Source: Senegalimassilia sp.
GTDB lineage: Bacteria > Actinomycetota > Actinomycetes > Actinomycetales > Bifidobacteriaceae
DNA length: 64,000 bases
NCBI GenBank assembly: GCA_963619615.1
Contig: CAVEXE010000005.1
Coordinates: 21,647-85,646, forward strand
Direction: 5' to 3'
The notes under the pieces: model-generated
What the model saw: the letters and a program-made list of their open reading frames with translations, nothing else
Database searches by the model: none
Told to the model about the DNA's origin: nothing
Position numbers and translations under genes: made by a program
In this document: positions 48,619-58,958 of the stretch, one piece after another
Layout of the letters: each line of letters opens with the position of its first letter
How positions within the stretch are numbered: the stretch's first letter is position 1

Positions 48619-49959
48619 ATGGAAAAGAACCTGACGGACGGCAACGTATTCAAAATCATCGTCACGTTCGCCATGCCATATTTCCTCTCGTACTTCCTAC
48701 AAACCCTGTACGGCATGGCCGATCTGTTCATCGCCGGACAATTCATCGGTGTGGACGGCATCACCGCGGTGGCCAACGGCAGCCAAGTGCTGTACATGCT
48801 CACCGTGGTGATCGTCGGCCTCGCCATGGGAGCCACCGTGAGCATCGGTCGCTGCGTCGGTGCGAATCGGCTCGATGACGCGGCCGAAGCCATAGGCAAC
48901 ACCATCACGTTGTTCGCGGGCGTGGCCCTTGCGCTCACCGTGGTACTGCTGGCCAACGTCAACGGCATCGTATCGCTCATCGGCACACCATCCGAAGCAG
49001 TGACGGGCACCACGCAATATCTGACGATCTGCTTCATCGGCGTTCCCTTCATCGTGGCCTACAACATCATCAGCTCCATCTTCCGAGGACTGGGAGATTC
49101 GAAAAGCCCGATGTATTTCATCGCCGTGGCATGCGCAGGCAACATCGCGCTCGACTACCTGTTCATGGGATATATGGACATGGGCCCTTCCGGAGCCGCG
49201 CTCGGCACCACGCTCGCACAGTCGTTCAGCGTGTTGGTGGCATTCGCGACCATACGGCGAAGGCGTACCGGTATACATCTGAACGTGACGATCCTGCGTC
49301 CGCAACGCGCCATACTTGGCGGAATTCTCAAAATCGGCGTACCGACCGCAGTGCAGGACGGATGCATCCAGGTGGCGTTCATCATCATCACCGTCATCGC
49401 CAACTATCGCGGACTCAACGACGCCGCGGCGGTCGGCGTGGTCGAAAAAGTAATCAGCGCGCTGTTCCTGGTGCCATCGTCCATGCTTGCCACGGTCTCG
49501 GCAGTTTCCGCGCAGAACATCGGTGCAGGCAAATACGACCGCGCCACGAAGACGCTCCGGTATGCCACCGGCATCACCGTGGCGTACGGCATTGTGATTT
49601 CCGTCATCGTGGAGCTCACCGCGGCGCCCATAGTCGGACTGTTCACCACCGACGCCGCGGTGATATTGCTCGGCACCCAATATTTGAGCAGCTACATCGT
49701 GGACTCTATCTTCGCCGGAGTGCATTTCTGCTTCTCCGGCTTCTTCGCGGCCTATGGTCGCTCCTACATCGGATTCATCCACAACATCATCGCCATCACA
49801 CTGGTTCGCGTGCCCGGGTCGTACATAGCGTCGAAGATGTTCTCCGACACCTTGTTCCCCATGGGCATCGCCGCGCCGGCAGGATCGTTCCTGTCCGTGC
49901 TCATATGCATTGGCTTCTACGCGTGGATGAAACGTGAAGGCGTGCTCGCGGTGAAGTGA
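48619..49959 (+). CDS. MATE family efflux transporter
   Basis: LQTLYGMADLF, RGLGDSKSP, NIALD, GAALGT, AQNIGAG; about 12 TMs. Confidence 0.92.
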   Translation: MEKNLTDGNVFKIIVTFAMPYFLSYFLQTLYGMADLFIAGQFIGVDGITAVANGSQVLYMLTVVIVGLAMGATVSIGRCVGANRLDDAAEAIGNTITLFAGVALALTVVLLANVNGIVSLIGTPSEAVTGTTQYLTICFIGVPFIVAYNIISSIFRGLGDSKSPMYFIAVACAGNIALDYLFMGYMDMGPSGAALGTTLAQSFSVLVAFATIRRRRTGIHLNVTILRPQRAILGGILKIGVPTAVQDGCIQVAFIIITVIANYRGLNDAAAVGVVEKVISALFLVPSSMLATVSAVSAQNIGAGKYDRATKTLRYATGITVAYGIVISVIVELTAAPIVGLFTTDAAVILLGTQYLSSYIVDSIFAGVHFCFSGFFAAYGRSYIGFIHNIIAITLVRVPGSYIASKMFSDTLFPMGIAAPAGSFLSVLICIGFYAWMKREGVLAVK

Positions 49960-50002
49960 GGTTAAGCGAGAACCGGCTGGTTCTGTCGGTTTCCAATGAC
50001 TT

Positions 50003-51028
50003 CTAACGGCGTTTCGGTGCAAGTGTGCCGGCAAGGGCGCGCTCTCCTGGGCGGGCCAGCGGGCCTACCAGTTCATGCGCCGAATAGGGTTCCTCGATGT
50101 AGGAGATGTCTTCGGCCGTGAGCTCCAGACCGAGCGCCGTGATGGCATCGTCCACGCGTTCCGGTTTTGAGCAACCGACGATTGGCGCGGTCACGCCCTT
50201 GGCCCAGTGCCACGCCAATGCGACGCTGGCCATCGGAACGCCAAGACGTTCGGCCACTTCATGGACGTGCCTGACGATCGGCATATCCTGTTCCATATCA
50301 CGGTCGTATTTGTTGCGCATGGTATTGTCAGTGACGCTTCTTGTCGAATCCGAATCCCAGGTCGGTCGTGTCAAATGGCCGGAAGCCATGGGGGAGTATG
50401 GCGTCAAAGCAACGTCATATTGACGGCAAACCGGAATCATCTCACGCTCGTCCTCACGATAGAGCAGATTGTAATGGCACTGCATGCTGGTGAATTTCGT
50501 CCATCCGTTCGCATCCGCCACGGCCTGCATATTATGGAATTGATAGGCGTACATCTCACTGGCGCCGAGCGCGCGCACCTTGCCGGATTTGACGAGCGCA
50601 TCCAGCGTCTCCATGGTTTCTTCGACGGGTGTGCCATAGTCGAATCTGTGGATGATGTACAGGTCCAGATAGTCGGTGCCCAACCTTGTGAGTGTGCCTT
50701 CGATTTCACGGTTGATGGCGTCCTTCGATAGATGTCCCTCGTTGAAATACACCTTGCTGGCCAGAACCACTTTGCCGCGATCGACGTTCAGATGCTTGAG
50801 CGCGCGTCCGATATACGTTTCGGAAGTGCCGAACGCATAGCAATTGGCGGTGTCGATGAAGTTGACGCCATTGTCGAGCGCATGGCCGATGACGCGTTCG
50901 GTGGCATCCTGATCGATGGTCCACTGGTGGAAGTCCGGTGATGCCTCGCCGAAGCTCATACCACCGAGACAGACTTTGGAGACCTGAATTCCGGACCAGC
51001 CCAGAGGCGCATACTGCATGTCTACCAT
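50003..51028 (-). CDS. aldo/keto reductase
   Basis: LGGMSFG, FIDTANCY, LGTDYLDLYIIHRFD, GKVRALGAS, YNLLYRE, PYSPMASG. Confidence 0.93.
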   Translation of the reverse strand: MVDMQYAPLGWSGIQVSKVCLGGMSFGEASPDFHQWTIDQDATERVIGHALDNGVNFIDTANCYAFGTSETYIGRALKHLNVDRGKVVLASKVYFNEGHLSKDAINREIEGTLTRLGTDYLDLYIIHRFDYGTPVEETMETLDALVKSGKVRALGASEMYAYQFHNMQAVADANGWTKFTSMQCHYNLLYREDEREMIPVCRQYDVALTPYSPMASGHLTRPTWDSDSTRSVTDNTMRNKYDRDMEQDMPIVRHVHEVAERLGVPMASVALAWHWAKGVTAPIVGCSKPERVDDAITALGLELTAEDISYIEEPYSAHELVGPLARPGERALAGTLAPKRR

Positions 51029-51192: not shown

Positions 51193-51600
51193 ATGAACAA
51201 TCCAAGTGCATTTCCGATGGGTGATCCGAATGACGGTTTCGCACAGTATTTCGTTGGACGGAGCTATCTGGCACCGGTGCTTGATGCTCCGGAAATCGCC
51301 ATCCACAATGTAACCTTCGAGCCTGGGTGCCGCAATAACTGGCATATCCATCATGGTGGCGCGCAGGTGCTCATCGCGGTAGGTGGACGTGGTTATTACC
51401 AGATTGACGGGCAGGAACCGAAGGAGCTCAGGGCGGGTCAGGCCGTGTGCATTCCGGCCGATACCAAGCACTGGCATGGTGCCGCTCCGGGTGAGGCGTT
51501 CTCGCACCTCGCATTCATGGTGCCCGCCGGTGACACCTCCGCCATGAGCAACGAGTGGCTCGAACCGGTCGACGCAGTGGCATACGGGCGTCTCGACTGA
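51193..51600 (+). CDS. cupin domain protein
   Basis: NVTFEPGCRNNWHIH, GRGYYQ, HWHGAAP, EWLEPV. Confidence 0.88.
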   Translation: MNNPSAFPMGDPNDGFAQYFVGRSYLAPVLDAPEIAIHNVTFEPGCRNNWHIHHGGAQVLIAVGGRGYYQIDGQEPKELRAGQAVCIPADTKHWHGAAPGEAFSHLAFMVPAGDTSAMSNEWLEPVDAVAYGRLD

Positions 51601-51732
51601 TCGTTTTGCCGATGAAATCGTCTTCACCAGTGGACTGGCTTCGCGGATCGGAACTGGCCTCGGCGCGAGACCATGTAAGCGACACCCGTGTCGGCGACAA
51701 ACTAAAACAAAAGACACTTGCAACGGCTGATC

Positions 51733-52896
51733 CTACATCATGTCCATCAACATGAAGGCGAGCAGCAACTGCAGTCTGCTGTCCAGTCTGGATAGGTCCA
51801 TGCACAGGATTTCCGCTGCTTTGGCGATTTTGTAGTTCACCGTGTTGCGGTGTACAAACAGCTCGTCGGCGGTCTCCTTCACGCTGCCGTTGTGGTTGAG
51901 ATAGCAGCGGAGCACGTCCAGCAGGTCGGAACTGGATTCCTTGTCGTACTCGATCAGAGGCCCCAGAACCTGTTCGTAGTATTCATGCGAGATTTCCGGA
52001 TCCTCGATGCCGAGCAGCACGCGGTATGCGCCGAGGTCGTCGAAGAAATTGATGCGGTCTTTCAGCTTCCTGCGTGACTGCAATTTCAGGATGGACGCCG
52101 CCTGACGATGGCTCTTGCTGACGCAGCGGATGCTTTTGGTGAGTTTCCCCACGCCTATGGATGCGGTTTCCTGCATGCGCAACGCATGCTCGACGATGGT
52201 GAGTATGCCGCGTCCCCATGCGCGCAGCTGCTGCGGTTCGTCGCAGTGCATCACGATGATGATCTGTTTCCAGGCGCTGAACACGGCGCTGAAACGTACG
52301 TTCCTGTGCAGATATTTTTGAATCTGCGTTGCGATGGATTCCAATCTTTCATACGGATCCGCCGCATAATGCTCCACCTGCACGATGGCGACGGCGTAAC
52401 GCCATTCGATTTCGAAGTGGAATTCCGAAAGCGTCGCCGTATACAGTTCCTGCTGGTCCGGGAATGAGATGGCGTTCTGGAACGCCGTGCTCACCATGCG
52501 TTCCTTGGTTTCCTCCTCGATGATGCGTCGACATAGCGGACGCGCGATGTTCTCGAACGACGCGTCTTTGGGAATGGTGAACAGCGCGAAGCCATGCTCT
52601 TCGCAGAAGGTCATCACCTCGACGGGCGGTTCCATGAAGAAATGTCCGATGTCGAGCGCTATGCCGGCCGCATGATGCTCATATAAGGATTTGACGTGGT
52701 TGAGCAGCGCGCCGTCTTCCTGCAGGGCGATGCCGGTGACGAGTATCAGTTCGTCGCCCGCAAGATAATTGATCATCAGTGTAGGCTCCAGCACATGAAC
52801 CCAGGTAACGTGATGTCCAAGCCCATCTTTTCCTGCGACCAGCTGAAGCGGAACGTCCGGACAGTCCTCAATCAACTCATGTAATTCCAAAGTCAT
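51733..52896 (-). CDS. PucR family transcriptional regulator
   Basis: N-terminal LVAGKDGL...VTWVH.LE, ELILVTG; C-terminal HTH TADELFVHRNTVNYKI; divergent from the aminotransferase operon. Confidence 0.9.
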   Translation of the reverse strand: MTLELHELIEDCPDVPLQLVAGKDGLGHHVTWVHVLEPTLMINYLAGDELILVTGIALQEDGALLNHVKSLYEHHAAGIALDIGHFFMEPPVEVMTFCEEHGFALFTIPKDASFENIARPLCRRIIEEETKERMVSTAFQNAISFPDQQELYTATLSEFHFEIEWRYAVAIVQVEHYAADPYERLESIATQIQKYLHRNVRFSAVFSAWKQIIIVMHCDEPQQLRAWGRGILTIVEHALRMQETASIGVGKLTKSIRCVSKSHRQAASILKLQSRRKLKDRINFFDDLGAYRVLLGIEDPEISHEYYEQVLGPLIEYDKESSSDLLDVLRCYLNHNGSVKETADELFVHRNTVNYKIAKAAEILCMDLSRLDSRLQLLLAFMLMDMM

Positions 52897-53208
52897 ATGT
52901 AATCCCAACGAAACATAACGTTAACTGCGTATTTCGAGATGTTTTGGACATCTTTGGCGCAGCGTCGTGACTGAAGGACATCATAGCGGCCCGATATTAC
53001 GGTTTTTCGCGAATCATCCGTCCGTCTCTTTGCATCGCCTGCAATGTTACGACAAATCGATTGTGCTGGAGCCTAATCGAATTTGGGCTTGCATGGCTGG
53101 AGAAACCGTTTTGGAAGGCAACATAATGAGTCCCAGTTCCGACTGGAGATGACGGCCGGGCAATTTGTTTCAGGATATTCCGTCATGAGAAGCAAGGAGA
53201 CATGCATT

Positions 53209-54426
53209 ATGAAGCTGCAGGACACCGGACTGACGTTCGAAGACATCAAGGGCAAGGTCGACACCTACATGGTCGAAACCTACGAGCGTTTCGACTTCCT
53301 CGCCGACCACGCCAAGGGTGTCTATATGTATGACGAGAACGATACCCCGTATCTCGATTTCTACGCAGGCATCGCAGTGAACTCCGTCGGCAACTGCAAC
53401 GAGAAGGTGGTCGAGGCCGTGCAGGATCAGGCCGCCACCTTGATGCAGACCTTCAACTATCCGTACACCATCCCGCAGGCGCTGCTCGCCGAGAAGATCT
53501 GTACTTCCATCGGCATGGACAAGATCTTCTTCCAGAACTCCGGCACCGAGTCGAACGAGGCCATGATCAAGATGGCCCGCAAGTACGGCGTCGAGAAGTA
53601 CGGTCCGAACAAGTACCACATCGTCACCGCCCGCGAATCCTTCCACGGCCGCACTTTCGGCGCCATGTCTGCAACCGGCCAGCCGGACAACGCATGCCAG
53701 ATCGGTTTCGGACCGATGACCGGAGGCTTCTCCTACGCGCCGTTCAACGATCTTGAGGCGTTCAAGGCAGCATGCAACGAGAACACCATCGCCATCATGG
53801 TCGAGCCTGTTCAGGGCGAAGGTGGCGTGCACCCGGCAACCCAGGAATTCCTGCAGGGCCTGCGTGAATTCTGCGATGAAAAGGGACTGCTGCTGCTGCT
53901 CGATGAAGTGCAGTCCGGCTGGGGCCGTACCGGTGCGCTCATGTCGTACATGAACTATGGCATCAAGCCCGACATCGTCTCCATGGCGAAGGCCATGGGC
54001 GGCGGCATGCCGATTGGCGCCATCTGCGCCACCAAGGAAGTCGCCGAAGCCTTCACCATGGGCTCCCACGGTTCCACTTTCGGCGGGCATCCGGTCTGCT
54101 GTGCGGCATCGCTTGCCGCGGTCACCGAAATCATCGACCGTGATCTGGCCGGCAACGCCAAGAAGGTCGGTGCCTATTTCATCGACAAGCTTTCCAAGCT
54201 GCCGCATGTCAAGGAGGCCCGCGGCCAAGGCCTGTTCGTCGGCGTCGAATTCGACGGCAGCGTCAACGCGGTCGACATCAAGCACGGCTGCCTCGACCGC
54301 AAGCTGCTCGTTACCGCCATCGGCAAGGACGTGGTCCGTATGGTACCGCCGCTGATCATCACCGAGGAGGACGCCGACAAGGCCGTGTCGATCATCGCGC
54401 AGACCGTCGAAGCATTGTCCGCGTGA
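53209..54426 (+). CDS. class III PLP-dependent aminotransferase (ArgD/omega-amino acid type)
   Basis: YLDFYAGIAVN, NSGTESNE, FHGRT, EPVQGEGG, DEVQSGWGRTG, MAKAMGGG (PLP lysine), HGSTFGG; RBS AAGGAG. Confidence 0.9.
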   Translation: MKLQDTGLTFEDIKGKVDTYMVETYERFDFLADHAKGVYMYDENDTPYLDFYAGIAVNSVGNCNEKVVEAVQDQAATLMQTFNYPYTIPQALLAEKICTSIGMDKIFFQNSGTESNEAMIKMARKYGVEKYGPNKYHIVTARESFHGRTFGAMSATGQPDNACQIGFGPMTGGFSYAPFNDLEAFKAACNENTIAIMVEPVQGEGGVHPATQEFLQGLREFCDEKGLLLLLDEVQSGWGRTGALMSYMNYGIKPDIVSMAKAMGGGMPIGAICATKEVAEAFTMGSHGSTFGGHPVCCAASLAAVTEIIDRDLAGNAKKVGAYFIDKLSKLPHVKEARGQGLFVGVEFDGSVNAVDIKHGCLDRKLLVTAIGKDVVRMVPPLIITEEDADKAVSIIAQTVEALSA

Positions 54427-54478
54427 CCCGGGCGAACCTACGGGAATCGTAACCACAACCAAGAAAGAGGGGAGCGGC

Positions 54479-55069
54479 ATGAAACACATGGTCATAACCA
54501 TCGGTTGCGAATACGGCGCCGGTGGCCCTGAAATCGGAAAGATGCTCGCCAAAGCGCTTGGCATCGAATACTACGACCGCGATCTCGTCGACAAGATCAT
54601 CAACGATCTCGACGTAGACAAGGAACTCGTCGAAAAGGCCGATAAGGGAGCGAACGTTCCCTACACGTTCGAAACGACGCTCGGCCCGCGCTACGCGAAC
54701 CTGACGAACAAGGTCATTTCCCTGCAGTATCAGGCCATGCATGAGATGGCCGAACGCTCGTCCTGCGTCATCATTGGCCGTAGCGCCAACTATCTGCTGC
54801 AGGACAGGGACGACCTGGTCAACATCTTCATCTACGCGCCGGAAGAGGAACGAGTCCGCGCGATCATGGAGAAGCAGTCCGTGAACGAGAAGCAGGCGAG
54901 GGAAATCGTCGGTTACAACGACGAGAAGAACCGCAGCAGGCATCAGTACATCACCGGTATGGACCGCGGCGATCGCAGACAGCGCGACATTCTGATCGAC
55001 AGCAGCATGCTCGGCTGGGAGAAAACCTGCCAGTATCTGCTGCTGCTTATCGAAATGATGAACGAATAA
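54479..55069 (+). CDS. cytidylate kinase-like family protein
   Basis: VITIGCEYGAGG degenerate P loop, YYDRDL, CVIIGRSANY, IFIYAP..ER, IDSSMLG. Confidence 0.85.
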   Translation: MKHMVITIGCEYGAGGPEIGKMLAKALGIEYYDRDLVDKIINDLDVDKELVEKADKGANVPYTFETTLGPRYANLTNKVISLQYQAMHEMAERSSCVIIGRSANYLLQDRDDLVNIFIYAPEEERVRAIMEKQSVNEKQAREIVGYNDEKNRSRHQYITGMDRGDRRQRDILIDSSMLGWEKTCQYLLLLIEMMNE

Positions 55070-55075
55070 CGGACG

Positions 55076-55110
55076 AAAGGGCCGTGGCTCGGGGGAGCTC
55101 GGTCCTTTTC
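55076..55110 (+). terminator. intra-operon hairpin before the permease-ADH fusion gene
   Basis: AAAGGGCCG..GCTC-GGGG-GAGC.CGGTCCTTTT. Confidence 0.45.
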
Positions 55111-55156
55111 CATTCTTGAACACCATCGCAGAGCTTACGTGAGGAAGGAACTTTCG

Positions 55157-57829
55157 ATGGAAACTCCAACTAAGAAAACATCAGAATTTAAGAAATCATT
55201 CAGTTCGCTCGACATCCTGATGATCGCCTTCGGCGCGATGATCGGTTGGGGATGGGTGGTCTCCACGGGCGATTGGATCGGAACCGCAGGCGTGATCGGC
55301 GCCATGCTCGGCTTCATCCTCGGCGGCGTGATGATCTTCTTCATCGGCATGACCTACGCCGAACTGACGCCGGCGATGCCTGAATGCGGCGGCGAACATG
55401 TGTTCAGCATGAGAGCCATGGGTCCGATCGGATCATTCGTCTGTACCTGGGCCATCATCCTCGGCTACGTGAGCGTCGTCTGCTTCGAGGCATGCGCGTT
55501 GCCGACCATCATCACCTACATCTGGCCGAGCTTCCTGCAGGGCTACCTGTATTCCGTGGCGGGATTCGACATCTACGCCACATGGCTGGGCACCGCCGTG
55601 CTGTTCGCGGTCTTCATCACCGTGATCAACATCATGGGTGCGCAGATCGCCGCCAAACTGCAGAACATCCTGACCATGTGCATCGGTGCCGCGGGCATCC
55701 TGCTGATCGCCGCGTCCGTTGTCACCGGTGACGTCTCCAACCTCGAGAACCAGCTGTTCGAAGGCTCCGGCATGGCCGGTATGATGTCGACCATTGTCAA
55801 GGTGGCGGCCATCAGCCCGTTCTTCTTCATCGGCTTCGACGTGATTCCACAGGCCGCGGAAGAGATCAACGTGCCGCTTAAGAAAATCGGCAAGATCCTC
55901 ATCCTCTCCATCATCCTGGGCACCAGCTTCTATGCGCTGGTCATCTTCTCCGTCGGCTATGTGATGACCGGAGACCAGATCGCGGCATCCAGCAGCGGAA
56001 CCGGTTTGGTGACCGCGGACGCCATGGCGGCGGCATTCCACAGCACCATCATGGCGAAGGTATTGATCCTCGCGGGTATGTGCGGCATCCTCACCAGCTG
56101 GAACTCGTTCATGATCGGCGGCAGCCGCGCCATGTACTCCATGGCCGAGTCCTACATGATCCCGCGTTTCTTCACCAAGCTCCATCCCAAGACCAACTCG
56201 CCGTACGTCGCGATCATCGTCGTCGGCGTGCTGAGCGTGCTCGCTCCGTTCGCCGGACGCAAGATGCTCGTGTGGGTCGTGGATGCAGGCAACTTCGGAT
56301 GCATCCTCGCGTATTGCATGGTCGCGCTGTCCTTCCTCATCCTGCATGTGAAGGAGCCGAACATGGTTCGCCCGTACCAGGTGAAGCACTGGAAGCTGGT
56401 CGGCGTAATCGCAGTGCTGATGTCCGGCATCATGATCATGCTGTACATCCTGCCCGGCACCGGCGTGACCCTGGCCCCGCAGGAATGGCTCATGGTCGCC
56501 GGATGGTCCGCGCTCGGCGTCGTGTTCTTCATCTTCAGCAAGCTGGTCTACAAAGACAAGTTCGGCTACTACGCACAGCTGTACGTCAGCGAATTGCACG
56601 ATGGGGCCGAGGAGGAGAAGGAAATCCCCGAATCCGCCACCGTCGTCAACCCCGCGGCCGCCGAAGCCAGCGTTCCGGACGAATGGTCCAACGGCTTCAA
56701 TTACTTCCTGCCGGTGAACCTCGTATTCGGCAAGGGCAAGGTGCAGGAGATCGGCAAGCTCGCATCCATGCACGGCTCCACCGCGATGATCGTCACGGGC
56801 GGCAACTCCGTGAAGGCCAACGGCACCTACGACAAGGTCCGTGCGCTGCTTGAAGAAGCCGGCATGACCACCGTGCTCTTCGACAAGGTCACGCCGAATC
56901 CGTTGACCACCACCGTTGACGAAGGCGGCAGAATCGCCAAGCAGCAGCATGTCGATGTGGTGATCGGCCTCGGTGGCGGCAGCGCCATGGACTCCGCCAA
57001 GGGCATCGCGTTCATGGCCGAGAACGAGGGCGGCGTCAGCGAATACATCTATGGCGAACGCGCCTCCAGCAAGGCATTGCCGCTCATTCTCGTGCCGACC
57101 ACCTTCGGCACCGGATCCGAAGCCAACGGCTTCTCCGTCATGACCAATCCGGCCAACGGCGACAAGAAGTCGCTGCGCAGCCCGGCACTCGTGGCGACCG
57201 CGTCCATCGTCGACCCTGACCTGATGCGCACCATGCCGAGCAGCGTAATCGCAGCCAACGGATGCGACATGCTGTGCCACTGCATCGAGGCGTACACCGC
57301 CAACAACGCCCAGCCGTTCACCGACGCCCTCGCACTGTATGCGATCCCGCTCATCGCCAACAACATCGTGAGCCTGTACCGCGGCGAGGGAACCGACGAA
57401 CAGTGGGCCAAGGTCTGCCTTGCGGGCACCATCGGAGGCATGATCATCAACACGGCGGGAGTCGGCCTGGGCCATGCCATGGAACACCCCGTCAGCGGAC
57501 TGAAGAACGTCACCCACGGCAAGGGTCTGGCCGCCATCGAACCGGCCACCATCGAAGCGACCTACCAGTACAACCGCTTCAAGTACGGCCGCATCGCAAG
57601 GGTGCTGGGAGGCTTCACCGCAGAGGATTGCGCTCCGCGAATGAAAACCCTGCTGCGCGATCTCGACCTCGACGTGACCCTGAGCGACCTGGGCATCGAG
57701 AAGAAGGACATTCCGTGGCTCGCCCAGAACACCCACAAGGTCTCTCCCGGAAACCTCGTGAACACGCCGGGCTCCAAGCTCGTCACATCCGAGGAATCCC
57801 TGGAGAAACTGTACGAGGCCATGCTCTAA
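55157..57829 (+). CDS. fusion protein: APC family amino acid permease (N-terminal) + iron-containing alcohol dehydrogenase (C-terminal)
   Basis: GAMIGWG, YAEL.PAMPECGG, FIGFD, AEE, SRAMYSMA and about 12 TMs up to about nt 56560; acidic linker; then FNYFLPVNLVFGKG, GLGGGSAMDSAK, PTTFGTGSE, DMLCHCIE, GHAMEH, THG. One uninterrupted frame. Confidence 0.9.
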   Translation: METPTKKTSEFKKSFSSLDILMIAFGAMIGWGWVVSTGDWIGTAGVIGAMLGFILGGVMIFFIGMTYAELTPAMPECGGEHVFSMRAMGPIGSFVCTWAIILGYVSVVCFEACALPTIITYIWPSFLQGYLYSVAGFDIYATWLGTAVLFAVFITVINIMGAQIAAKLQNILTMCIGAAGILLIAASVVTGDVSNLENQLFEGSGMAGMMSTIVKVAAISPFFFIGFDVIPQAAEEINVPLKKIGKILILSIILGTSFYALVIFSVGYVMTGDQIAASSSGTGLVTADAMAAAFHSTIMAKVLILAGMCGILTSWNSFMIGGSRAMYSMAESYMIPRFFTKLHPKTNSPYVAIIVVGVLSVLAPFAGRKMLVWVVDAGNFGCILAYCMVALSFLILHVKEPNMVRPYQVKHWKLVGVIAVLMSGIMIMLYILPGTGVTLAPQEWLMVAGWSALGVVFFIFSKLVYKDKFGYYAQLYVSELHDGAEEEKEIPESATVVNPAAAEASVPDEWSNGFNYFLPVNLVFGKGKVQEIGKLASMHGSTAMIVTGGNSVKANGTYDKVRALLEEAGMTTVLFDKVTPNPLTTTVDEGGRIAKQQHVDVVIGLGGGSAMDSAKGIAFMAENEGGVSEYIYGERASSKALPLILVPTTFGTGSEANGFSVMTNPANGDKKSLRSPALVATASIVDPDLMRTMPSSVIAANGCDMLCHCIEAYTANNAQPFTDALALYAIPLIANNIVSLYRGEGTDEQWAKVCLAGTIGGMIINTAGVGLGHAMEHPVSGLKNVTHGKGLAAIEPATIEATYQYNRFKYGRIARVLGGFTAEDCAPRMKTLLRDLDLDVTLSDLGIEKKDIPWLAQNTHKVSPGNLVNTPGSKLVTSEESLEKLYEAML

Positions 57830-57855
57830 GCGCCGAACGCTAAGAACGCCGATTC

Positions 57856-57903
57856 ATAGGGGTGTGTTGTTCCGTCGATACCATCGGAACAACACACCCC
57901 TAT
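57856..57903. terminator. bidirectional terminator hairpin closing the aminotransferase operon
   Basis: ATAGGGGTGTGTTGTTCCG ... CGGAACAACACACCCCTAT. Confidence 0.8.
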
Positions 57904-57962
57904 TCGTCATATGAGTCGCATACGCAAAGAATCACACGCAAAAGATGTATGGGACCGTCGAA

Positions 57963-58958
57963 CTACAGTTCGAACACACGCCTGATGAAGCCCTCCACCT
58001 TACGCCAATAAACATCAGGAGCCACACCCGCGCTCTCCATATGATTGGCACCGGGAACCAGCAGCTTCTCGCGGTCCATGCTCGCGCAGGCATTGTAATT
58101 GATCTCAAGGAACCGCGGATTGACCATATGATCATCCCCGCCATGAATGAACAGCATCGGAATGACCGCACGCCTCAACGACTTCACGCACGACGCCTCC
58201 GTGAAATCATATCCGGCACGCCACTTGCAGATAAGCCCTGCGGTATCCACACAGGCGGCGGCGAGCGGACGAGGAAGATGGAACATGGTACGGGCGCTGT
58301 CGATAAACGCGGAACGAACCGACGTATAGCCGCTATCCTCAATGGCCGCGACCACATTACGAGGCAACCTCGGATCCCCGACCGTCATCATCACAGTCGT
58401 CGCACCCATCGACCCGCCATACAGCAGAATGCGGGCCTGGCTATCACTGGAAACGATCAAATCGATCCAATCCAACAAATCGTTACGCTCCAGCCAACCC
58501 ATACCGACGTAACGACCCTCGCTCAAATCCGCCGTCCTCTGCGACGGCGCAAGCACGGTGAACCCCAAGCGCGCATACCGGTGCGCCCACACCGCGGTCT
58601 CCTCCGCATGCCCCGTATACCCATGCATGCAAATCGCGTACAAATGAGGTTCGGGATCAACGCAATCCGGATCAAACAGCCAGCCGTGCAATTTCAAACC
58701 ATCCCCGTTCGTCATCGTCACGGGCTGTTTGGTCTGCTCGAACCAGGCGGAAGCCTCCGCAGCCGGTCCGGAACTCATCTTCTCATAACGATCCGGCGCG
58801 ATTATATCCTGATGGAAAATGGAATGCTTCCACTTGGTATCAAGAGCGAAATGGAACAGAACACCGGCGCTCGCCGCCACGATTCCGGCGAATACCGCCA
58901 CGGAGGTACCGGTGGCGATACGTATGTTGCGGACGATATCGGAATGGTTTTGCTTCAT
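57963..58958 (-). CDS. alpha/beta hydrolase with N-terminal membrane anchor
   Basis: HGY oxyanion motif, GGSMG nucleophile elbow, IEDSGY, FIHGGDD, GANH. Confidence 0.88.
   Translation of the reverse strand: MKQNHSDIVRNIRIATGTSVAVFAGIVAASAGVLFHFALDTKWKHSIFHQDIIAPDRYEKMSSGPAAEASAWFEQTKQPVTMTNGDGLKLHGWLFDPDCVDPEPHLYAICMHGYTGHAEETAVWAHRYARLGFTVLAPSQRTADLSEGRYVGMGWLERNDLLDWIDLIVSSDSQARILLYGGSMGATTVMMTVGDPRLPRNVVAAIEDSGYTSVRSAFIDSARTMFHLPRPLAAACVDTAGLICKWRAGYDFTEASCVKSLRRAVIPMLFIHGGDDHMVNPRFLEINYNACASMDREKLLVPGANHMESAGVAPDVYWRKVEGFIRRVFEL

Follow-up and report, generated by a model that had tools for sequence, protein, structure and literature searches.

The window analysed here is a stretch of 64,000 nucleotides from contig CAVEXE010000005.1 (GenBank assembly GCA_963619615.1), part of a genome deposited as Senegalimassilia sp. 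and placed by GTDB in the Bifidobacteriaceae (2.40 Mb in 46 contigs, 58.1% GC). Judged by its nearest relatives, the genome belongs to Bifidobacterium. The window contains a unit of four genes: one for a PucR-family regulator and, divergent from it, those for a class III aminotransferase (AT1), for a Cytidylate_kin2 protein (CK2), and for an APC-superfamily permease fused to an iron-dependent alcohol dehydrogenase (Fe-ADH). We propose, with a probability of about 0.5, that this is a horizontally acquired, PucR-controlled import-transaminate-reduce unit that would serve nitrogen scavenging.

As proposed, an amine would be taken up through the predicted APC permease, and AT1 would likely pass its amino group to 2-oxoglutarate, the acceptor and the direction of flux being our assumption. 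The aldehyde formed would then likely be reduced by the permease-fused Fe-ADH, such that the nitrogen would be kept as glutamate and an alcohol released. The alcohol would presumably be exported, possibly by antiport through the same permease, and PucR would act as an amine-responsive activator at a conserved palindrome. This logic is plausible because a CK2-permease-ADH core recurs across genomes, because the enzyme beside it is exchanged between AT1, a GabT-like aminotransferase (AT2) and an ornithine cyclodeaminase (OCD)/mu-crystallin enzyme, and because the annotated loci contain no aldehyde dehydrogenase.

Pfam and NCBIfam profile searches on the listed open reading frames (ORFs), together with RNA folding, confirm the four-gene anatomy and the strong closing hairpin that the initial annotation of this DNA had described from the letters (Table 1). 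The regulator carries both the N-terminal PucR domain and the C-terminal HTH_30 domain that define its family, and its start is likely the ATG at 52896. AT1 was called as an ORF at 53083-54426 (+); the true start, however, is most likely the ATG at 53209, because the alignments with PDB entries and with orthologs, which are 403-410 aa long, begin there. The fusion spans 55157-57829 (+) and encodes 890 aa, matching the database records, whereas the GTG at 55139 is a start given by the ORF-caller only. The intergenic gaps measure 52 nt between AT1 and CK2 and 87 nt between CK2 and the fusion.

The order of these genes recurs far beyond chance. A survey of one genome per prokaryote species, queried with an alignment of 14 fusion homologs, returned at least 600 matches, of which 584 were confirmed and the best 80 loci retained as the base of all counts out of 80 given here. 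Genes around these loci were counted with tblastn, using thresholds of at least 65% identity for AT1 and at least 45% identity for an ADH of the window type, lower values being assigned to a divergent type. In 78 of the 80 loci the gene immediately before the permease is CK2; in one more it is 466 bp away, and one locus is cut by a contig end. An Fe-ADH domain or gene directly follows the permease in 69 (44 of the window type and 25 divergent), and 5 loci with room for it have none. AT1 sits directly upstream of CK2 in 59, while 11 loci with room lack it. Thus, the arrangement is repeated in 59-78 of 80 independent loci. The ADH is fused to the permease in 41 loci and is a separate adjacent gene in about 30, tallies that rest on crude ORF calls, and the coexistence of fused and adjacent unfused forms constitutes a Rosetta-stone link between the two proteins. 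Bifidobacterium is represented among the best 80 by B. moukalabense (90% identity) and by B. pongonis and B. erythrocebi (both 84%); the rest are nearly all Lachnospiraceae, other Clostridia, Megasphaera and Selenomonas, with a few contigs binned to other phyla.

The loci also differ in an informative way. AT2 is present in 24 of the 80, its members scoring 470-492 bits against a GABA (gamma-aminobutyrate) transaminase cut-off of 506.65, and an OCD/mu-crystallin enzyme takes the place of AT1 in 5 (L010-L013 and L022, all Lachnospiraceae). Since AT2 or OCD is present where AT1 is missing, every version of the swappable partner is an amino-group-attacking enzyme, and the fixed core is CK2-permease-ADH. 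In the two OCD-type neighbourhoods that were annotated, L010 and L012, the OCD gene is near an AraC regulator and a four-gene Fer2_4/Pyr_redox_2/BFD/DAO set, which in our view recalls proline or opine dehydrogenase complexes. The OCD-like substitute scores 534 bits on NF004848, a model labelled "tyramine oxidase subunit B"; we traced this label to no paper in the literature and did not use it. Comparison of the OCD-like protein and of a small GNAT protein with PDB entries gave no hint of a substrate. Other genes that recur in the 80 loci are PucR (14), an XRE-cupin regulator (31) and the small GNAT (7). A look-up of aldehyde dehydrogenase (PF00171) among 74 neighbour proteins from 12 loci returned none. 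The unit had been described at the outset as self-contained, and the recurrence of its core without any aldehyde dehydrogenase in the loci annotated agrees with this.

AT1 is a paralog and not the ArgD of this cell. It meets two subfamily models (TIGR00707, 434.2 bits against a cut-off of 410.05; PRK01278, 414 against 372) and fails every equivalog model (NF002874, 384 against 457; NF002797, 379 against 496). A separate argD in an arg operon had been named as a check on this point, and it is found on contig 17 between argB and argF, with a protein that exceeds the same NF002874 cut-off at 594.8 bits. The genome contains five class III genes; AT1 is 38% identical to its own ArgD and 32% identical to a GabT encoded on contig 9, and GABA-transaminase models are absent from the 25 best model matches of AT1. 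The motifs of the enzyme are intact (SFHGRT, EPVQGEGG, DEVQSGWGRTG, the lysine of SMAKAMGGG, and STFGG), and it aligns over its full length with its best solved relatives, the acetylornithine aminotransferases of Aquifex (334 bits) and Thermotoga (329 bits). On the basis of these motifs and alignments, AT1 should be an active transaminase. The arginine of FHGRT presumably binds the substrate carboxylate in this family.

A phylogeny of the aminotransferases, also called for at the outset, gives a consistent picture. In a quick maximum-likelihood tree of 67 rows, with support from the SH-like approximate likelihood ratio test (SH-aLRT) only, the AT1 sequences, 32 rows in all, group as a single clade (SH-aLRT 99) that includes neither the GabT-like group nor the housekeeping ArgDs. 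Two rows (L088_Bif_AT2 and L089_G011_AT1) were disregarded as wrongly extracted antisense ORFs. Five Clostridial genomes with related loci were checked. Four of them carry both an AT1-clade gene (TIGR00707, 421-441 bits) and a distinct gene of the ArgD clade (408-500 bits); the fifth, which has an OCD-type locus, carries ArgD only. Relative to the ArgD of arginine biosynthesis, AT1 shares the fold, motifs and subfamily hidden Markov model but differs in its clade, its equivalog scores and its position away from the arg operon. Two more class III proteins are encoded on contig 1 (L004 1363-2727) and contig 12 (L005 1303-2757). Their best match is to the transaminase end of the long PRK06148/PRK06149 fusion family, with 421 and 341 bits, both below cut-off; we take this family to be of the kinase-linked, phospho-lyase kind.

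The fusion places an APC permease and an Fe-ADH in one frame, with a mean column identity of 71% over 14 homologs. It belongs to a group of proteins already named [quoted passage not shown] in NCBI records, a name that is descriptive only; homologs of 860-950 aa at 60-100% identity occur in records of B. dentium, Chordicoccus and Bilifractor. No functional study of the fusion, the unit or its parts was found in the literature. None of the NCBIfam transporter models exceeds its cut-off on the permease domain. A hydropathy scan gives 12 merged hydrophobic peaks behind a K/R-rich N-terminus, from which the ADH domain is predicted to face the cytoplasm.

The initial annotation had cast the Fe-ADH as the functional partner of the aminotransferase, and the sequence of the domain is in keeping with this. 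The NAD(P)-binding motifs GGGS and GTGSE and the Asp/His/His/His metal ligands are present and invariant in 14 homologs, such that the domain appears to be catalytically intact. Among solved structures it comes closest to generic alcohol, methanol, 1,3-propanediol and butanol dehydrogenases. No NCBIfam equivalog model passes on it: the best match is the regulatory protein ErcA (229 bits against a cut-off of 550), and the 4-hydroxybutyrate dehydrogenase model NF058672 gives 173.7 against 500. Where NAD-specific Fe-ADHs have Asp in the Rossmann fold, the window ADH has Gly (IVTG). A passage in PMC13495136 associates Gly at this position with NADP, and by our own mapping of IVTG onto it the window ADH would use NADPH.

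CK2 was first noted as a cytidylate-kinase-like protein. The kinase fold of PF13189 stands; an active kinase, on the other hand, is hard to support, and the three-step proposal does not account for the protein. On the cytidylate kinase model TIGR02173 it reaches 34.1 bits against a cut-off of 102.1. The Walker A consensus is GxxGxGK[ST]. The P-loop of CK2 reads GCEYGAGGP, lacking both the Walker lysine and the Ser/Thr that follows it, and one ortholog subclade reads GCEYGAKGN. YDRD, IGR and two arginines further along the chain do not vary among 23 CK2 orthologs. Solved relatives are limited to 3hdt and 3fdi, neither of which has an assigned function, and CK2 is the sole PF13189 gene in the genome. 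A complex prediction of permease residues 1-480 with CK2, made without controls, lent no support to binding (a score of 0.01 and a mark of 0.32) and counts neither for nor against it. We consider it most probable that CK2 serves the permease as a ligand-binding partner and is not a kinase.

Two candidate regulatory elements are located in the 312-bp spacer between PucR and AT1. The left half of a palindrome, ATTGTGCT, and its spacing are invariant in six of six aligned Bifidobacterium PucR-AT intergenic regions, and the palindrome is positioned about 30 bp upstream of a -35-like hexamer. We regard it as a putative PucR site and candidate operator. The promoter-like site at 53098-53127 is the sole sigma-70-like match in 51500-58100, where shuffles average 2.3, and its -10 block is conserved in the Bifidobacterium spacer alignment. 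In the CK2/fusion spacer, a stem-loop occurs at the same position in six of six Bifidobacterium orthologous spacers, with differing sequences; it may act as a partial terminator or attenuator, or as a transcript stabiliser. The hairpin at the end of the unit (-47 kcal/mol for a 101-nt fold) is matched in stability by 0 of 200 shuffles. It occurs once in the genome and has no U-tract; we presume that it acts as a terminator. Membership of this hairpin in a repeat family was considered and ruled out, as the BLAST self-hits are palindromic self-matches. An Rfam scan of the window region and eight related loci found no riboswitch, leader or known RNA family from which a ligand could be read.

The same genome holds a second cluster of similar design. 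On contig 9 (L091 4839-11688), a regulator with a PucR domain is divergent from an APC permease, a GabT that passes NF004714 (665 bits against 639), and an Fe-ADH that scores 356 bits against Cvir-Hbd2 of C. viride. According to PMC13495136, Cvir-Hbd2 is a genuine, C4-restricted 4-hydroxybutyrate dehydrogenase found in abt-hbd clusters, one of them with pucR. The contig-9 cluster may thus let this Bifidobacterium turn GABA into 4-hydroxybutyrate, and close homologs of its ADH (75-95%) are found in four of the five other carrier genomes checked, three of these four being from the second Bifidobacterium lineage described below. It shows that the design of PucR, permease, transaminase and Fe-ADH recurs. 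The C. viride abt-hbd clusters (PMC13495136) and the contig-9 cluster resemble the window unit in bringing together a PucR-family regulator, a permease of the APC type, a class III transaminase and an Fe-ADH. They differ in having a GabT-model transaminase and an ADH of the 4-hydroxybutyrate dehydrogenase type, whereas the window unit has the ArgD-subfamily AT1 and another type of Fe-ADH, which is fused to a different APC permease and accompanied by CK2. The conversion of GABA to 4-hydroxybutyrate had been one of the candidate reactions proposed for the window unit; because the genome has this canonical cluster, GABA is now an unlikely substrate of the unit and the candidate a poor one.

Another precedent by analogy was also proposed early, namely the taurine cluster of B. 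kashiwanohense. There, according to PMC6616044, the aminotransferase Toa and the Fe-ADH sulfoacetaldehyde reductase TauF convert taurine to isethionate. The shared logic holds: in that source, as suggested for the window, a class III transaminase yields an aldehyde that a metal-dependent ADH reduces, the alcohol is waste and the nitrogen is kept, and the system is likewise a Bifidobacterium cluster. The metal site differs, with His at the second ligand in the window ADH and an atypical Gln in the Asp/Gln/His/His set of TauF (PMC6616044). The fusion of the ADH to a permease and the presence of a CK2 gene also set the window unit apart from Toa/TauF. Orthology of the reductases does not hold, since the window ADH gives 139.7 bits to 6JKO and is not a TauF ortholog. 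Toa is, we assume, of the GabT-like kind, as opposed to the ArgD-like AT1. In C. glutamicum, a PucR-type activator, GabR, reportedly accompanies gabTDP. That system is like the window in that a PucR-family regulator adjoins an amine catabolic operon with a class III transaminase and a permease, and unlike it in that gabD oxidises the aldehyde, whereas the window has a reductase fused to the permease. Toa/TauF, abt-hbd and the PucR-type GabR can be regarded, by analogy, as precedents for the logic proposed.

As for the substrate, our tentative first choice is a carboxylate-bearing compound of the diamino-acid type (N-acetylornithine, ornithine or lysine). The ArgD-type pocket motif of AT1 speaks for this type, as do the exchange of AT1 for OCD-family or GabT-type enzymes and the separate GABA cluster. 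Omega-amino acids such as 5-aminovalerate, beta-alanine or similar compounds follow as a less probable class, diamines or N-acetyl-diamines rank below these as unlikely, and GABA is low in the ranking.

Several findings weigh against the import-transaminate-reduce proposal. CK2 is the most tightly linked partner and yet has no place in the three steps. AT1 resembles biosynthetic acetylornithine aminotransferase at the subfamily level, and its substrate could therefore be an intermediate of the arginine pathway rather than a scavenged amine. The fused ADH of Megasphaera (L045 9498-10592; L066 9501-10502) has lost GGGS, GTGSE and all metal ligands, and the AT1-CK2-permease synteny is kept in both loci despite the dead domain. 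This implies that the permease and AT1 function there independently of reduction, which is accordingly not obligatory everywhere; the ADH domain may serve some non-catalytic purpose as well. For the top-ranked substrates a simple reductase step is awkward, since the free aldehyde of ornithine or lysine would cyclise. The right half of the palindrome is degenerate in the window, where it reads AGCCTAAT with two mismatches. Finally, the stem-loop and U-run between CK2 and the fusion mean that full co-transcription is not assured.

Because CK2 is unexplained and the dead Megasphaera ADH is retained, these parts may also be read as regulators of the transporter. On that account the locus would be a transport unit for the arginine/ornithine family, with metabolic roles for the permease and AT1 alone. 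AT1 would be a second acetylornithine/ornithine transaminase for salvage or catabolism, taking for example ornithine to glutamate semialdehyde/pyrroline-5-carboxylate and on to proline or glutamate, and the ADH domain and CK2 would be attached to the transporter on the cytoplasmic side as regulators or sensors rather than enzymes of a pathway. The subfamily scores of AT1 on TIGR00707 and PRK01278 fit this, as do its replacement in 5 of 80 loci by a family that includes ornithine cyclodeaminase, the Fer2_4/Pyr_redox_2/BFD/DAO set near the OCD gene in the two such loci annotated, the missing Walker lysine of CK2, and the ErcA match of the ADH domain, far below cut-off as it is. A purely regulatory domain, however, is difficult to reconcile with an ADH that is well conserved in the window and in the 44 loci of the same type, with motifs intact in the window and in two such loci checked, or with the intact separate Fe-ADH genes at the same position in unfused loci. 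The replacement of AT1 by the GabT-like AT2 in the second Bifidobacterium lineage is likewise hard to fit to an arginine-only role, and we consider this explanation unlikely. An electron sink is a different proposition: the unit would ferment an omega-amino acid (GABA to 4-hydroxybutyrate, or 5-aminovalerate to 5-hydroxyvalerate), with re-oxidation of NAD(P)H rather than nitrogen as the main benefit. PucR, a class III transaminase and an Fe-ADH together are the layout of C. viride abt-hbd (PMC13495136) and of the contig-9 cluster; the AT2 partners fall narrowly short of the GABA transaminase cut-off, and the 4-hydroxybutyrate dehydrogenase model registers on the ADH domain (174 bits). Yet that score is far from the cut-off, AT1 is ArgD-like and not GabT-like, and the genome already owns a GabT beside a Cvir-Hbd2-like Fe-ADH whose homologs accompany most of the other carriers checked. 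We hold this reading to be rather improbable.

Kinase/phospho-lyase pairs are known in animals and mycobacteria, and a route of this kind for an amino alcohol was also considered, with CK2 phosphorylating the substrate, the class III enzyme producing aldehyde, ammonia and phosphate, and the ADH reducing the aldehyde. The placement of a kinase-fold gene between a class III enzyme and a permease with weak likeness to ethanolamine permeases (131 against 382 bits) is what brings it to mind. In CK2, however, neither the Walker A lysine nor the Ser/Thr after it is present, AT1 belongs to the ArgD subfamily and matches solved acetylornithine aminotransferases end to end, and the PRK06148-like class III proteins are other genes, on contigs 1 and 12. 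As CK2 has no Walker lysine and AT1 is ArgD-like, we set this route aside as highly improbable.

A horizontal link of the import-transaminate-reduce unit to gut Firmicutes had been raised at the outset, and it is borne out by identities across phyla and by a patchy distribution in Bifidobacterium. AT1 is 74-78% identical to its orthologs in Lachnospiraceae and Megasphaera, whereas the housekeeping ArgD of the genome is 34.5-39% identical to Clostridial ArgDs. This disparity suggests that the unit was probably acquired by inter-phylum transfer. The fusion occurs in 18 of 151 Bifidobacterium species genomes, including that of the window, at 83-100% identity in 11 and at 63-66% in 7; the carriers include B. 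dentium and B. angulatum. Three of the seven more distant genomes were inspected (loci L086 in G022, L087 in G139 and L088 in G141), and their layout is CK2-fusion-AT2, without AT1; a GNAT gene lies between the fusion and AT2 in L086/G022 only. The different layout of the 63-66% fusions suggests a second, independent acquisition into Bifidobacterium. Nine random relatives of the same genus gave no DNA match to the cluster. In several of these the right flank (hyp404-L25-ilvE) is syntenic, and the left flank is located elsewhere. The third-position GC content (GC3) of the cluster genes is 0.73-0.85, which is host-like, and thus the transfer would not be recent. The AT1 tree is unrooted with respect to the direction of transfer, and we infer the direction, Firmicutes to Bifidobacterium, from the distribution.

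PucR orthologs are 88-89% identical in B. moukalabense and genome G036 and 65-66% in other Bifidobacterium. A 6.5-kb contig of 36.7% GC titled Segatella copri (L009) has the order PucR-AT1-CK2-fusion, the same as that of the window, with 84% identity in AT1 and 47% in PucR. This contig, which may have been binned wrongly, appears to stand for the lineage closest to the donor.

The coordinates of the unit are collected in Table 1. Among the ORFs annotated between 47.4 and 61.2 kb there is neither an aldehyde dehydrogenase nor an arg gene, in agreement with the absence of such neighbours reported from the first reading of the sequence. The flanking genes in this interval encode LacI, a MATE exporter, an aldo-keto reductase, two unknowns, ribosomal protein L25 and IlvE. 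The MATE and aldo-keto reductase genes (48619-51028) are also upstream of the unit in B. moukalabense and B. pongonis, at 79-87% identity; B. erythrocebi has only the reductase at this flank and genome G011 only the MATE gene, and relatives without the unit have the reductase elsewhere.

Table 1. Genes, domains and candidate signals of the unit, in window positions
Feature	Position	Strand	Basis
PucR-family regulator	51733-52908	-	PucR 90.3, GGDEF_2 37.1, HTH_30 70.3 bits (Pfam)
Candidate operator palindrome, ATTGTGCT-N2-AGCACAAT	53060-53077		within 312-bp PucR-AT1 spacer
Promoter-like site, TGGAGA-18-CATAAT	53098-53127	+	consensus match only
AT1, class III (ArgD-subfamily) pyridoxal phosphate aminotransferase, 405 aa	53209-54426	+	PF00202 373 bits
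CK2, Cytidylate_kin2 (PF13189) protein, 196 aa	54479-55069	+	PF13189 158.7 bits, cut-off 28
Stem-loop followed by UUUU, CK2/fusion spacer	55076-55109	+	101-nt window fold, z = -2.6
APC-superfamily permease domain of the fusion, residues 1 to ~470	55157-56570	+	AA_permease_2 126.5 bits
Fe-dependent alcohol dehydrogenase domain of the fusion, residues ~513-890	56690-57829	+	Fe-ADH 174.9, ADH_Fe_C 126.6 bits
Terminal hairpin, perfect 19-bp stem	57858-57903	+	fold z = -7.7

Taken further, the observations can be assembled into a bolder picture, which we regard as speculative and improbable in its entirety. The unit would be a gut-wide transport metabolon in which an APC exchanger, fused to an NADPH-dependent aldehyde reductase and always paired with a Walker-less kinase-fold protein, imports an amine of the ornithine, N-acetylornithine or lysine type. 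An ArgD-derived transaminase would harvest the nitrogen, and the permease would expel a hydroxy-amino acid or hydroxy acid not yet recognised as a microbial gut metabolite. Transfer between phyla would have brought the system into Bifidobacterium on no fewer than two occasions, the recipients including the lineage of B. dentium, a GABA producer.

Gut and rumen Firmicutes carry the CK2-permease-Fe-ADH core in hundreds of genomes, counted at species level. AT1 has thousands of homologs at about 80% identity, and we found no paper in the literature that assigns it a substrate or a product. If the import-transaminate-reduce proposal is true, the unit would represent a widespread pathway in which a luminal amine supplies fermenters with nitrogen and an alcohol is given off, and it would bear on the turnover of gut amines and neuroactive metabolites. 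It would also place the Cytidylate_kin2 family in a functional context for the first time and supply a naturally occurring fusion of transporter and enzyme for study.

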